Assembly: GCA_964429585.1 (NCBI GenBank)
Contig: CAYSCN010000001.1
Coordinates: forward strand, 49,809 to 113,808
Length of the DNA: 64,000 bases
Source of the DNA: an uncultured bacterium
Lineage (GTDB): Bacteria; Desulfobacterota; Deferrimicrobia; J040
Direction: 5' to 3'
In this document: piece by piece, positions 16,221-55,173 of the stretch
How positions within the stretch are numbered: the stretch's first letter is position 1
How the letters are laid out: the number at the start of each line of letters is the position of its first letter
Notes under the pieces: model-generated
Databases searched by the model: none
Told to the model about the DNA's origin: nothing
What the model saw: the letters and a program-made list of their open reading frames with translations, nothing else
Position numbers and translations under genes: made by a program

Positions 16221-16415
16221 GTTCGAGAGTGTTCCATGCTCGGGTGACGGGCTTCAACATGGTGGGAAGAAAGTTCGCAATCAGAAAGTGCCCTGCGAAA
16301 ATAATTCTCTCACGTGCATTTCGCGGATTGGGTCTGTTCAGTGAACAAGCGTCGAAAATGCTGAAAAAACCGCAGGGTTCACGAATCCGAAATTCATATC
16401 ATATTGGATAGCGCG

Positions 16416-16431
16416 TGGCACGAGGTATGCA
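16416..16431 (+). promoter_or_regulatory. sigma54 promoter of copA
   Basis: TGGCAC-GAGGT-ATGCA. Confidence 0.65.
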
Positions 16432-16532
16432 CAATATTAAAGATAAAGCGTCATGTGGCCGATTATAGTGAAAAAAATCAGAGAAGTTCAATTTCCCCCG
16501 CGACTTGTGGGGGAGAAAGGGGAGAAGGAAAA

Positions 16533-19409
16533 ATGAAGAAGTTCAAGGATCCAGTATGCGGTATGGATGTAGAGATAACCGAAACGACGCTCTCGCATGA
16601 GCACGACGGGAAAAAATATTATTTTTGCAACCCGTCGTGCCTGAAAGAATTTCAGGAATCGCCAGAGTCGTTTATCGGTGAGAGCCCGGCGAGCGCAGAG
16701 GGTGAGGGTGTCCCGGACGGGCCGCCGGTCGATCCGGTGTGCGGCATGAAGGTGGAGGTTGGTGAGGGGACGCTCTCGCACCAGCACGAAGGGGTGACGT
16801 ATTATTTCTGCAGTGAAGCGTGCTTGAATGATTTCAAGGGATCCCCCGAGAGTTTCACCGGGAAAGAGCATTCGGATGGAGGGGGCTCGGCCTCTCACGC
16901 GGCTCACGCCGAGGAAGAAGTCGATGTGGAAAAGCGTGAGCTGGATGTGGAAAAGGGAGAATCCGTGTCCCTGGGGATATCCGGCATGACCTGCGCGTCC
17001 TGCGTGGCGAGGATTGAAAAAGCCTTGAAAGGCGTTCCCGGCGTCATTGATGCTTCGGTGAATTTCGCCACGAACGATGCTCTCGTTGTTTACCAGAAAG
17101 GCAAGGTAACCGTCGGTGACCTGATAAAAGCGGTGAAAGGTGCCGGATATGACGTGGTGACGGAAAAGCTCGACTTCCCCATCAAGGGTATGACCTGCGC
17201 GTCCTGCGTGGAGAAGATCGAAAAAGCTCTCAAAAAGATTCCCCAGGTGATAGACGCTTCCGTGAATCTGGCGACGGGGGCAGGGAGAGTGGAGTACGTC
17301 GCTGGAGACGTGGACATAAGAAGCGCCGTGAGGGAAGCGGTGGCGTCTGTTGGCTACGAGGTTGAGGAGATATCAGAAGAGGAAGATCCGCTTGCTGCCA
17401 AAGAGAGGAGGGAGAAGGAGGAGATCCGGATACTGAGGAAGAAGTTCCTCGTCGGTCTCGTGCTGGTGATTCCCACGTTTTTGCTGGTTTACTGGGATGT
17501 TATCGGTCTTGACAAGATACTTCCCATACCCAAGAGAATAAGTTTCATACTTCAGTTGATACTCATCACCCCTGTTCAGTTCTGGGCTGGATCGCAGTTT
17601 TACAAGGGAGCTATAGCTGCTGCCAAGCACAAAACAACCAACATGAACACGTTGATCGCAGTGGGTACCACTGCCGCTTACATTTACAGCTTGATGGCGA
17701 CCTTCTTCCCGTCTTTCTTCGAGGCGAGCGGCTACGGTGCCGAAGTTTACTACGACACCGCAGGGGCGATCATAGTCCTGATTCTGCTCGGCAGATACTT
17801 CGAAGCGATAGCAAAGGGCAGGACCGGAGATGCGGTGAAGAAGCTTATCGGGCTCAAGCCTAAAACCGCCAGAGTGAAAAGAGGCGATGAGTTCGTGGAT
17901 ATACCAATCGATGACGTGAAACCCGGTGACCTGATCCAGGTCAGGCCGGGCGAGAAAATACCAGTCGACGGTGAGGTCGTGGAAGGCAATTCGATTGTCG
18001 ACGAGTCGATGCTCACTGGAGAACCCATGCCGGTCAGCAAAGGTCCTGGAGACAAGGTGGTAGGCGCCACTGTCAACCAGACGGGAACTTTCGTGCTGAA
18101 GGCAACGGGCGTCGGAAAAGACATGGTGATATCCAGGATAATAAAGTTGATTCAGGAGGCGCAGGGGTCCAAGCCACCCATCGCCAGGCTGGCAGACCAG
18201 ATATCCAGCTATTTCGTGCCCGTGGTTATTGTCATATCGATTATCACCTTCGCAATATGGTATGCGATAGGGCCGGAGCCCAAACTTACCTACGCTCTCC
18301 TCACTTTCATCTCGGTTCTCATCATCGCGTGCCCGTGCGCGCTCGGTCTCGCCACTCCGACTTCGATAATGGTAGCGACCGGAAAAGGCGCTCAGCACGG
18401 GATCCTCATAAAGAGCGGGCTCGCCCTCGAGACGGCTCACAAGATAGATACCATAGTTCTTGACAAGACCGGAACCCTAACGAAGGGGAAACCCGAAGTG
18501 ACGGATATAGTCGTCCCCGGGAAGAACAATCCGCTCACGGAGGAAGAACTCCTGAAGTATGCCGCCTCCATCGAGGTCGGTTCGGAGCATCCTCTGGCGA
18601 CTGCTATAGTGCAGAAGGCGGAGCAGCTCGGTGTCAAGGTCGACAAGGCAGAGGAGTTCGAGGCGGTTCCCGGACACGGAGTCAGAGCGAGCGTGTCAGG
18701 AAGGACGGTTATTCTCGGGAACGAGAAGTTTATGAAGGACAACGGAGTCGACGTGGAGCCGTTACGGGAGAAGGAAAAACAGCTCTCAGGTGACGGAAAG
18801 ACCCCGATATTCGTGGCAGTCGACGGGAAGCTCGGCGGGATAATAGCGGTGGCTGATACCCTCAAGGAAAATTCCAAGAAGGTGGTTACGGAGCTCAAGA
18901 AGAGGGGTTTGACCGTGGTCATGCTGACAGGTGACAACTGGAGGACTGCTGAAGCGATAGGGAAGCTGGTCGGTGTGGACAGGGTTATAGCCGAGGTATT
19001 GCCGGAAGACAAGGCGGATGCCGTAAAGTCTCTCCAGGCCGAAGGAAGGACGGTTGCGATGGTCGGTGACGGTATAAACGACGCTCCCGCACTTGCTCAG
19101 GCGGATGTGGGTATAGCCATAGGCACGGGCACGGACATCGCCATAGAGTCTGGTGACATAATCCTGATGAGCGGTGAACTGGACGGGATAATAGTGGCAA
19201 TCGAGCTCTCCCATGCTACGATAAGGAACATCAAGCAGAACCTCTTCTGGGCGTTTGCATACAACACGGCTCTCATCCCGGTAGCGGCGGGTGTTCTCTA
19301 TCCCTTCTTCCACGTTCTTCTCAATCCGATTTTTGCCGCGGCAGCCATGGGTTTGTCTTCGGTGACGGTTGTCGGAAATGCCCTGAGGCTCACGAGGTTC
19401 AAAATCTGA
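16533..19409 (+). CDS. copA: Cu(I)-translocating P1B-1 ATPase with 2 YHS and 2 HMA domains
   Basis: DPVCGM...YFC x2, GMTCASC x2, CPC, DKTGT, HP, GDGIND, YN and MxxSS; start moved to ATG 16533. Confidence 0.95.
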
Positions 19410-20590: not shown

Positions 20591-20606
20591 TGGCATGGTT
20601 GGTGCA
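20591..20606 (+). promoter_or_regulatory. sigma54 promoter (cassette copy 1)
   Basis: TGGCAT-GGTTG-GTGCA, followed by SD and ATG 20639. Confidence 0.55.
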
Positions 20607-20638: not shown

Positions 20639-20806
20639 ATGTTGGGAGGATGGCTAGGACTGATAATCATAGGCGGGCTGATTTTCCTGATGTTCCGCGG
20701 AGGTGGTTGTTGCGGTGGAGGCGGTAAGGGTTCTGATGTCTCGGGGAGCTCTCACCACGGGGGCGTAACCTCCGATGGAAGCGGCTCGAAGAAAGGGTGT
20801 CATTGA
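20639..20806 (+). CDS. 55-aa single-TM Gly/His/Cys-rich protein (below the ORF-track cutoff)
   Basis: MLGGWLGLIIIGGLIFLMFRGGGCCGGGGKGSDVSGSSHHGGVTSDGSGSKKGCH; GGAGG SD; paralog at 50934-51116. Confidence 0.8.
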   Translation: MLGGWLGLIIIGGLIFLMFRGGGCCGGGGKGSDVSGSSHHGGVTSDGSGSKKGCH

Positions 20807-20847: not shown

Positions 20848-20901
20848 ATGAAGAGATTCATGGTTCCAAGAGTGGCACATTGCCAGGAAGGACACATCTG
20901 A
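20848..20901 (+). CDS. 17-aa micropeptide MKRFMVPRVAHCQEGHI
   Basis: GGAGGT SD 7 nt upstream; paralog at 50817-50897 differs mostly by synonymous changes. Confidence 0.65.
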   Translation: MKRFMVPRVAHCQEGHI

Positions 20902-20928
20902 GGTCCTGGACATGACCTAAAACTGTCC
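20901..20928 (+). ncRNA. Putative 28-nt H-type pseudoknot, copy 1
   Basis: AGGTC-CT-GGACA-T-GACCT-AAAAC-TGTCC; two 5-bp stems; 25/28 identical to 50810-50837. Confidence 0.5.
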
Positions 20929-20999: not shown

Positions 21000-21188
21000 A
21001 TGAACTGTCCGAAGTGCAATGGGCTTATGCTCTTCGAGAGGTTCGTTGACGGAACCGAGCATTTCTTCGGGTGGAGGTGTCTCCTCTGCGGCCTGATAGT
21101 CGACGAGGTGGTGCTGAAAAACAGGAGGGCGGAGCTCGGCAATCCAAATGAATTGAAAACAGTCGGAGCAAAAGGAGGTTTGAAATGA
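21000..21188 (+). CDS. Small zinc-ribbon-type protein
   Basis: 62 aa, CPKC...CLLCG; AGGAG SD; ATGA overlap with the next gene. Confidence 0.7.
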   Translation: MNCPKCNGLMLFERFVDGTEHFFGWRCLLCGLIVDEVVLKNRRAELGNPNELKTVGAKGGLK

Positions 21189-21883
21189 TGGAGATGAAAA
21201 GGAAGTCTTTGACCGTCACGGCTCTCATCGTGATGTTTCTGTTTTCGGCTTCGCTCGTCATGGCGCAGGCCGGTGGGCAGATGAAACACCACGGAGCTAC
21301 ACAGGGAAAAGAGAAGTCGGAAAAAGGCGGCGGAGCGATGATGGGCTCAGGCGGTCAGGGCGGCATGATGGGAATGATGAGCAAAATGATGAGTGGGATG
21401 AGTGGAATGATGAGCATGATGAGCAGTCGCGGCGGGTGCGGCATGATGAGCATGATGGACATGGAAAGCAAATTCCAGGAACACTTCGCTCTCTGCCTCA
21501 AGAACGCCGACAAACTGGGTCTCACCGAGGAACAGATCGGGCAGCTGAAGAAGATTCACAACGAGCAGCTCAAGAAATTGATAATGCTTAAAGCCGAGGT
21601 AAAGGTGATAGATGTGGACCTCTCAGCGGAGCTGGAAAAGGACGTTCCGAATCTCGATAGGGTGGAGAAGCTGCTCAAGAAGCAGGAAGAGCTGAAGACG
21701 AAGTACCGCCTCGAACTTGTGAGGGCAAAAGTAGAGTCCTCCAAGATTCTTACCAAGGAGCAGAGAAAGAAGCTCAAGACTCTCATGAAAGGCGGAATGA
21801 TGGGAGGAATGAAGGGCGGTAAAAAAGGCGGCATGAAAGGTGGAATGCAAGGGTCTTCAGGTGGCTCCATGATGAAAAAATAA
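21185..21883 (+). CDS. Spy/CpxP-family (LTxxQ) Met-rich periplasmic protein
   Basis: Signal peptide, LGLTEEQ and LTKEQ motifs, two Met/Gly-rich tracts. Confidence 0.8.
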   Translation: MMEMKRKSLTVTALIVMFLFSASLVMAQAGGQMKHHGATQGKEKSEKGGGAMMGSGGQGGMMGMMSKMMSGMSGMMSMMSSRGGCGMMSMMDMESKFQEHFALCLKNADKLGLTEEQIGQLKKIHNEQLKKLIMLKAEVKVIDVDLSAELEKDVPNLDRVEKLLKKQEELKTKYRLELVRAKVESSKILTKEQRKKLKTLMKGGMMGGMKGGKKGGMKGGMQGSSGGSMMKK

Positions 21884-55090: not shown

Positions 55091-55124
55091 AAAAAAACTC
55101 CTGCCACTGCAAAAGTGCAGGAGT
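55091..55124 (-). terminator. Riboswitch expression platform (intrinsic terminator)
   Basis: ACTCCTG-CAC...GTG-G-CAGGAGT then TTTTTT directly before the ATG. Confidence 0.85.
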
Positions 55125-55164
55125 CATCAGCCCTGCCGGGCGGTTAGAGGCGGACTCCATCGCC
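55117..55164 (-). ncRNA. Fluoride (crcB) riboswitch aptamer
   Basis: GGCGATGGAGTCCGCC-TCTAACC-GCCC-GGCA-GGGC-TGATGACTCCTGC: P1 GGCG/CGCC, pseudoknot GGAGU/ACUCC, conserved GAUG and UGAUG. Confidence 0.92.
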
Positions 55165-55173
55165 TTTTGAAAA

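Follow-up and report, generated by a model that had tools for sequence, protein, structure and literature searches.

A 28-base motif that closes two micropeptide genes in a 64,000-nucleotide stretch of DNA from an uncultured bacterium, here called 'the window', is very probably a genuine conserved RNA pseudoknot, judging from its homologs. Covariation reaches each of its two helices but not their coexistence in one molecule, which the loop lengths allow. The explanation we favor, tentatively, is that this H-type mRNA pseudoknot bounds a widespread, unannotated micropeptide gene on its 3′ side and may act there as a translation-coupled terminal element.

The motif occurs as AGGTCCTGGACATGACCTAAAACTGTCC at 20901–20928 on the forward strand (copy 1) and as AGGTCCCGGACACGACCTTAAACTGTCC at 50810–50837 on the reverse strand (copy 2). 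When re-read, both copies are exactly as a sequence-only reading had described them in sequence, coordinates and strand. Their geometry is also as noted there, with stem 1 (S1, AGGUC/GACCU), a 2-nt loop 1 (L1), stem 2 (S2, GGACA/UGUCC), a 1-nt junction and a 5-nt loop 3 (L3), and the three differences between copies all fall in loops, namely at base 2 of L1, at the junction and at base 1 of L3. A degenerate knot pattern has two matches in the window versus 0.00 expected from 100 shuffles, and these two copies are its only matches in the whole genome (2.34 Mb, 68 contigs). The features of the two cassettes are as follows.

20591–20606, forward: sigma-54-like −24/−12 element TGGCAT-N5-GTGCA, 5′ of cassette 1, by direct reading
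20639–20806, forward: first gene of cassette 1, a small one-TM Gly/Cys/His-rich protein of 55 aa
20848–20901, forward: micropeptide gene copy 1, MKRFMVPRVAHCQEGHI followed by the stop, 17 aa, with a coding signature in homologs
20901–20928, forward: pseudoknot copy 1, from the pattern, family covariation and covariance model R1 (41.2 bits)
20901–20905, forward: copy 1, 5′ strand of S1
20906–20907, forward: copy 1, L1
20908–20912, forward: copy 1, 5′ strand of S2
20913, forward: copy 1, junction
20914–20918, forward: copy 1, 3′ strand of S1
20919–20923, forward: copy 1, L3
20924–20928, forward: copy 1, 3′ strand of S2
51153–51168, reverse: sigma-54-like −24/−12 element TGGCAC-N5-ATGCA, 5′ of cassette 2 and just 3′ of hgcB, by direct reading
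50934–51116, reverse: first gene of cassette 2, a small one-TM Gly/His-rich protein of 60 aa
50817–50897, reverse: micropeptide gene copy 2, MTITRFMIPRVAHCGEGHQSRSRTRP followed by the stop, 26 aa, with its UAA within L3 of the knot
50810–50837, reverse: pseudoknot copy 2 (AGGUCCCGGACACGACCUUAAACUGUCC), from the pattern and R1 (38.8 bits)

Each cassette has a gene for a TM protein, then a micropeptide ORF with a good Shine-Dalgarno (SD) sequence, and the knot as its closing element. The sigma-54-like elements, of the GG-N10-GC type, lie ~35–50 nt ahead of the TM-protein start in both cassettes. When cassettes 1 and 2 are aligned, protein-like conservation is seen in both ORFs, followed by a non-alignable stretch with a 1-base length difference and then by the 28-mer. 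In copy 1, GGAGG stands 8 nt 5′ of the ATG and the spacer to the knot is 7 nt, which is the family norm minus one; as had been noted before, the A of its UGA stop (20899–20901) is the first knot base. The spacer of copy 2 has the standard 8 nt, and its ORF (50897→50817) does run into the knot and end at the UAA in L3.

Homologs were chosen by a back-translated peptide motif, F-M-x-P-R-V-A-H-C, independently of the knot RNA. Of 401 genomes from the phylum of the window, 44 have this motif, against scattered single matches only for a reversed control pattern; it is also present in at least 118 contigs of a species-representative genome collection. With three false positives removed, 131 distinct peptide loci were obtained among the matches listed. 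They belong to Thermodesulfobacteriota/'Deltaproteobacteria', Actinomycetota (Acidimicrobiia, Thermoleophilia, Geothermincolia), Patescibacteria, Methylomirabilota, Aminicenantes, Ignavibacteria, Leptospirales, Gemmatimonadota, Peptococcaceae and others, all as MAGs.

The micropeptide (MKRFMVPRVAHC...) has the core M-K-R-F-M-[VIL]-P-R-V-A-H-C-[SGDKC]-[EDSG]-G-[CH] with a strong Shine-Dalgarno sequence upstream, and AAGGAGGTG precedes the micropeptide ORFs across the homolog loci. A coding signature is also found outside the search pattern, as Gly15 is encoded by an invariant GG with a free third base and the Arg3 codon is either CGN or AGR. Conservation collapses past residue 16, residues 17–19 being unconserved. 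Searches of Pfam and NCBIfam gave nothing relevant for the micropeptides, the TM proteins or the downstream zinc-ribbon protein; neither a full-text literature search with the peptide string and motif descriptions nor tblastn of the peptide against PLSDB plasmids found a match. Incidentally, one locus (L179, G006:C122) loses its frame ahead of Cys12 through an additional A (…GTT CAC A CTGC…) while its knot is intact, and this copy is either a pseudogene or an assembly error.

The knot is found in the same place in 111 of the 131 distinct peptide loci (85%). It was compared in A2, an ungapped 43-column alignment of 108 distinct sequences picked by peptide and not by RNA, with the family consensus GUCC-y-GGGCA-n-GAC-nnn-AAAC-UGCCC. 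From two copies the sequence-only reading had no covariation to offer for its H-type pseudoknot at the micropeptide gene ends; in these 108 homologs, both interleaved helices covary across phyla and the loop lengths are compatible with the fold. Paired cells make up 83.1% in A2, as compared with 22.6–39.6% when the 3′ partners are slid by 1–3 columns, and double-change cells number 102 rather than at most 38. None of 500 shuffles reaches the observed covariation score, a figure that is optimistic because the sequences are related.

Helix 2 is 90% paired, with double changes in five of its six pairs. Pair 16–34 is GC in 80 sequences and AU in 25, and pair 17–33 is GC in 98 and AU in 9. At least nine versions of stem 2 occur: GGGCA/UGCCC, GGACA/UGUCC, UGAGC/GCUCA, CGAGC/GCUCG, UGAAC/GUUCA, UAAGC/GCUUA, CAAGU/GCUUG, CUGGCA/UGCCAG and CCGGCA/UGCCGG. 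The stem 1 core is GUC/GAC in ~94%, with compensated AUC/GAU six times and GCC/GGC and GACC/GGUC once each; of its pairs, 10–23 is GC in 101 and AU in 6, and 11–22 is UA in 105, AU in 1 and CG in 1. G-U pairs are tolerated on the sense strand only, so the constraint acts on the sense RNA.

The outer S1 pairs of the window copies (A-U and G-C) are paired in ~36% of homologs, which is the chance level, and unpaired in ~64%. Therefore, the family-wide S1 is the 3-bp GUC/GAC core, and the 5-bp S1 is specific to the window's lineage. In all 108 aligned sequences, L1 has 1–2 nt, the junction 0–1 nt and L3 5–7 nt, which is sterically adequate for the H-type fold (at least 1–2 nt of L1 over an S2 of 5–6 bp, at least 3 nt of L3 over an S1 of 3–5 bp). 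A19, G21 and A27–29 are invariant in A2, and GUCC, A19, GAC and AAA are near-invariant as elements. The AAA invariance was not made by filtering, as the six filtered-out sequences are all plain hairpins. Single-sequence energies of nested folds are unremarkable (z of −0.1 to −0.7, ViennaRNA, which has no pseudoknot model); the support for the knot is comparative, not thermodynamic. Rfam 15 gave nothing relevant at the gathering score or at E ≤ 10 for the window, or at E ≤ 1 for 20 further loci, and the knot is a structured-RNA family new to Rfam 15.

The distance between peptide and knot is also conserved. The GUC of the knot starts 8 nt past the last conserved codon in ~95 of 106 loci (by the knot-calling scan, 78 plus 15 in a shifted stem-2 register), within a range of 7–9 nt; a spacing of 7 nt is seen in a few, such as window copy 1, L048 and L120. 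No in-frame variants (±3) of the spacing were found among the scanned loci. The 8-nt spacing is kept even where the ORF stops at codon 17, so frame-keeping does not explain it. Within this spacer (A2 columns 4–6, the 20895–20897 region of the window), out-of-frame UAG or UAU is frequent, as in CCUAG, AGUAG and UGUAG; in 108 sequences, column 4 is T in 47, column 5 is A in 56, and column 6 is G in 34 and T in 56.

Stop codons of 109 loci precede S1 in 26, lie inside the knot in 79 and lie beyond it in 4, so that 105 of 109 are before or inside the knot. Their positions are as follows.

Stop at codon 17: 12 loci (~11%)
Stop at columns 5–6: 3 loci
UAG whose G is the first stem 1 base: 11 loci
Stop at the start of the stem 2 5′ strand: 16 loci (UGA in 15, UAA in 1)
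UGA across the junction and the stem 1 3′ strand: 28 loci
UAA in L3: 35 loci
Stop beyond the knot: 4 loci

Among loci that lack an earlier stop, 35 of 38 have U in column 26, which makes the UAA, versus 30 of 68 otherwise (Fisher p = 8e-7, which the relatedness of the sequences makes optimistic).

The knot is replaced in 18 loci (Patescibacteria, Geothermincolia/Solincola and a few others) by a stable plain hairpin with its stem beginning at +5 to +9. The hairpin of Patescibacteria is a canonical terminator with a U-tract, and in some members of this group the ORF runs through it (L078, L109, L116). One Actinomycetota MAG (L115) keeps the 5′ half of the knot, GGUCCUGAGCA, and has its full complement as the 3′ half, making a plain 12-bp hairpin at +8. 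This looks like a knot-to-hairpin transition, as read from the one sequence.

The mRNA enters the 30S subunit at about +12. When codon 16 is in the P site, the first knot base would lie at ~+12, at the mRNA entry channel, and the knot would meet the ribosome just as the conserved 16-residue core is complete. No machine other than the ribosome is known to gauge how far downstream of a codon a structure lies, and for this reason we read the knot as a translation-coupled terminal element. How such a terminal element or roadblock would work we propose a little more guardedly still, as one possible course. The knot would slow the ribosome at the end of the core, and translation would be made to end within the knot, so that ribosomes are kept from reading on. 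Each terminating ribosome would open the knot, whose refolding afterwards could cap or insulate the short message. Three observations do not fit this explanation easily. Where the ORF ends at codon 17 (~11% of loci), ribosomes have no need to unfold the knot. Near-invariant GUCC, A19, GAC and AAA exceed the needs of a mere roadblock and could mean recognition by a ligand or protein. Lastly, there are a few orphan knots without an intact micropeptide, and together with the near-invariant bases they keep ligand- and protein-binding readings alive.

Those orphans came from a knot-first search with covariance model R1, which was built from the knot alone and models its stem 2. R1 has ~69 matches of at least 29 bits in ~60 of the 401 genomes of the phylum, separated by a clean gap from noise below 27 bits, and more than 90% of the strong matches sit behind canonical or variant micropeptides. 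We inspected 34 R1 matches that lack the exact peptide pattern, and most of them stand behind variant micropeptides of the same logic. The following variants were seen.

MRWMFPHATHCS[AT]CGS...: variant micropeptide
MLRKRYQLRAIAHCKEGC followed by the stop: variant micropeptide
MLKRWMLRAVAHCSEGC...: variant micropeptide
MAHLCSSPH...: variant micropeptide, short

One peptide family (family B) has a separate terminator ~25 nt past the knot. A handful of matches are orphan knots without an intact micropeptide, L185 and the three below.

L186 (G091:C20:4432-4462): intact knot of 37.7 bits with an apparently decayed MKRF... ORF upstream
L187 (G066:C12:240157-240187): orphan knot 35 nt past a P-II gene, in its 3′ UTR, at the end of an RND (ACR_tran) efflux operon
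L188: partial duplicate of knot and terminator

L186 lies between two intrinsic terminators, as an sRNA-like unit of ~150 nt, and the L187 knot overlaps the stop region of a convergent MerR-family regulator. The orphans hint that the RNA may act on its own.

Genes around the module are frequently those of metal handling. On the same strand and directly 5′ of the micropeptide are small YHS/TRASH proteins (L037, L042, L046, L089, L107, L148) or P1B-type ATPases (L054, L122, L130), making at least nine loci in total with one or the other directly upstream. ArsR regulators adjoin ~8 loci, and downstream partners include YHS proteins (L120, L122), DUF5676, hemerythrin and cupredoxin/COX2-like proteins. 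Gly/His-rich TM proteins like those of the window adjoin the micropeptide in L010, L068, L088 and L114, being downstream in the last three. In eight Desulfobacterales loci (L064, L083, L085 and relatives), a protein of 79 aa, rich in Cys and His (…FCPYYRTCLDH…WSCLECRH…), is directly upstream (−290 to −50) and has no Pfam match. Metal-homeostasis genes are within 4 kb in roughly a quarter to a third of loci, a proximity far above chance by a rough estimate from typical gene counts. Some co-directional ORF lies within 400 nt in 58 of 109 loci, some of these ORFs being spurious.

In the window, copy 1 belongs to a copper island and comes after a CopA that has YHS-type domains at its N-terminus. 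This CopA-type ATPase (16404–19409, forward) has two N-terminal DPVCGM...YYFC modules, which are YHS/TRASH-like, and two HMA domains; downstream of cassette 1 is a Met/Gly-rich periplasmic protein with a CpxP/Spy-like C-terminal part (21185–21883, forward). The cassette of copy 2 is directly behind hgcA and hgcB (51403–52768, reverse). HgcA has 350 aa, a CdhD-type domain and the cap-helix motif NVWCSAGKGKF, and HgcB has 97 aa with two 4Fe-4S motifs and a Cys-rich C-terminal tail. A CFA-synthase-like gene (49620–50738, forward) converges on the copy 2 knot, and a fluoride riboswitch (crcB motif) is found at 55111–55173 on the reverse strand, with 63.4 bits against a gathering score of 34. From this context, the neighbors (YHS/TRASH proteins, P1B-ATPases, ArsR, cupredoxin and hgcAB) would tie the knot-peptide module to metal homeostasis.

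The ribosome could also be irrelevant to the knot, if knots and hairpins only shield the short mRNA from 3′ exonucleases or aid transcript ending, which we consider unlikely. The equivalent structure in Patescibacteria being a canonical terminator favors such a 3′-end element, as does the family B terminator. The knot had been placed at the probable transcript 3′ end, and this is plausible for both window copies, where GCC-UUUUU, then a sigma-70-like promoter, come after copy 1 and a convergent gene after copy 2; it is not general, because ~10 loci continue into a downstream SD and gene 15–35 nt past the knot and just 17 of 109 loci (16%) have a T-run in the 12 nt that follow it. On this T-run count we rejected the knot itself as an intrinsic terminator; in 16 of 109 loci, another terminator is found within 130 nt. 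A mere stabilizer also leaves unexplained both the fixed 8-nt spacing, even with a codon-17 stop, and the selection for a stop in the knot. Another reading is a regulatory arrest module, with the nascent chain in the exit tunnel, its His and Cys possibly sensing thiophilic metals, the knot fixing the waiting site and the stall altering the fate of the mRNA or of neighboring genes. Conservation ends exactly at residue 16 while the C-terminal extension and stop position are free, as if only the arrested state matters; the structure is at +12 from codon 16; the module is located in metal operons, and its portability across phyla would suit an element that depends on the ribosome only. Nonetheless, we consider such arrest distinctly unlikely, as the peptide does not resemble known arrest motifs and a co-directional downstream gene to regulate is missing from about half of the loci, window copy 2 among them. 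As regards a leader-peptide attenuator, no conserved alternative pairing was found in the family. In a bolder form, which we regard as a long shot, the module would be a self-contained, horizontally portable ribosome-based sensor. Its nascent 16-mer would chelate a thiophilic metal (Cu+, Hg2+, Zn2+ or Cd2+) in the exit tunnel through His11, Cys12 and Cys/His16, the knot would hold the ribosome at codons 16–17, and the arrest would control the fate of a metal-stress transcript. If true, it would be the first metal-sensing arrest peptide.

The knot itself could be recognized by a ligand or a protein, or could serve recoding. A riboswitch-like knot would have a metal ion or small metabolite as its ligand, and how stable it is would control the passage of ribosomes or the decay of the mRNA. 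In size and architecture the knot is like the small pseudoknot aptamers; its L3 is A-rich, unpaired or junction bases (C13, A19, A27–29) are near-invariant, the AAA not being filter-imposed, and one orphan is in an RND/P-II/MerR metal-efflux locus. We find this improbable, since no Rfam family matches even at E ≤ 10, a position 3′ of the ORF is atypical for riboswitches, the invariant bases are explicable by triplex or tertiary contacts common in H-type knots, and regulation by proteins is already present at the loci (through ArsR, and through sigma-54 systems in the window). Even less probable is an operator, bound for autoregulation by a conserved RNA-binding protein or by the micropeptide itself, possibly metal-loaded. 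Knot and peptide are inherited together, the peptide N-terminus is basic (K2, R3, R8) and stem sequence is conserved beyond pairing needs, but no conserved neighboring RNA-binding protein was found, and the peptide is very short with three basic residues only. Least credible of all is a recoding signal, offered by the sequence-only reading as an alternative, in which readthrough of the UGA (copy 1) and a shift by +1 (copy 2) would produce ...GPGHDLKLS, or the knot would stimulate a −1 frameshift. A spacer of 6–8 nt with a compact H-type knot is the geometry of recoding stimulators, and the three copy differences do appear synonymous in the GPGHDLKLS frame. They fail as a sign of recoding, because the most variable loop columns (14, 20 and 26) are 6 nt apart and thus share one codon phase. 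The GPGHD frame is read in ~4 of 109 loci, with a spacer shorter by 1 nt, the dominant frame through the knot in homologs being x-S-[WR]-[AVT]-stop, and stem 2 covariation alters the residues of the former (PGH to PEQ or PEH). The stop position varies over 25 nt. No slippery heptamer X XXY YYZ exists 5–9 nt upstream, where codons 15–17 are GGN-UGY/CAY-NNN and the spacer columns are variable, and there is neither a conserved −1-frame ORF nor conservation 3′ of the knot in any frame.

Several other candidate roles were rejected. A stop-codon readthrough signal does not agree with stops at columns 2, 5–6, 8, 14, 20 and 26 or with unconserved post-core residues. For a bacterial SECIS, the UGA is variable in position or absent, and both UGA and Cys are missing from the aligned site of copy 2. 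A tRNA-like acceptor mimic was dismissed because 'RCC' 3′ of the knot is only ~40% conserved and the column 36 purine is better taken as part of a sixth S2 pair. An anti-SD role of GUCCU would have 4 bp at most, and pairing of the S2 strands with codons 15–17 is feasible only with particular Gly-His or Cys-Pro codons, which are not conserved.

The family thus adds a covariation-supported structured RNA absent from Rfam 15 and a very short protein family not found in Pfam, NCBIfam or the searched literature, the two being locked at a ribosome-sized spacing in at least six phyla. The knot-peptide module recurs in copper and heavy-metal operons, with one window copy adjoining the mercury-methylation genes hgcAB, and its micropeptide has been missed by automatic annotation in metal-resistance islands of uncultured anaerobes. 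Whatever its exact mechanism, it is a compact, experimentally tractable case in which decoding of a specific codon is tied to a conserved mRNA structure further downstream, with nothing recoded.

Among known systems, H-type knots of −1 frameshifting include those of the luteovirus BWYV type, MMTV gag-pro and bacterial E. coli copA/CopA(Z). The knots here are like these in being compact (~28 nt) with an A-rich L3, a 1-nt junction and the first pair at ~+12 from the P-site codon, and copA is a copper gene as well. They differ in having no X XXY YYZ site, no conserved overlapping frame and no sequence similarity, in embedding stops in the knot and in a stem 1 of only 3 bp family-wide. The readthrough pseudoknot of the MuLV type also lies a few nucleotides past a stop, as in the 12 codon-17-stop loci and window copy 1, whereas the stop here is not fixed relative to the knot, no in-frame extension is conserved and most stops are inside. 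The preQ1-I, SAM-II, fluoride and guanidine-III riboswitches share the size, H-type topology, A-rich 3′ loop and several invariant unpaired bases; in contrast, no covariance-model match to them was found, the knot here follows the coding region and stem 2 is longer than stem 1.

The arrest-peptide leaders (ermCL, secM, mifM, tnaC) are similar in having a short conserved ORF, a decisive codon that sets the leading edge of the ribosome at a downstream RNA structure, and later sequence unconstrained, although the present family lacks a consistent regulated downstream gene or alternative SD pairing, its peptide is unrelated and stalling here is hypothetical. Compared with arfA/brfA mRNAs, many members have an ordinary stop ahead of or within the structure, so that the family as a whole is not one of non-stop mRNAs, and the peptide is unrelated, but in both a small ORF enters a conserved stable structure, and L078, L109 and L116 run through the terminator.
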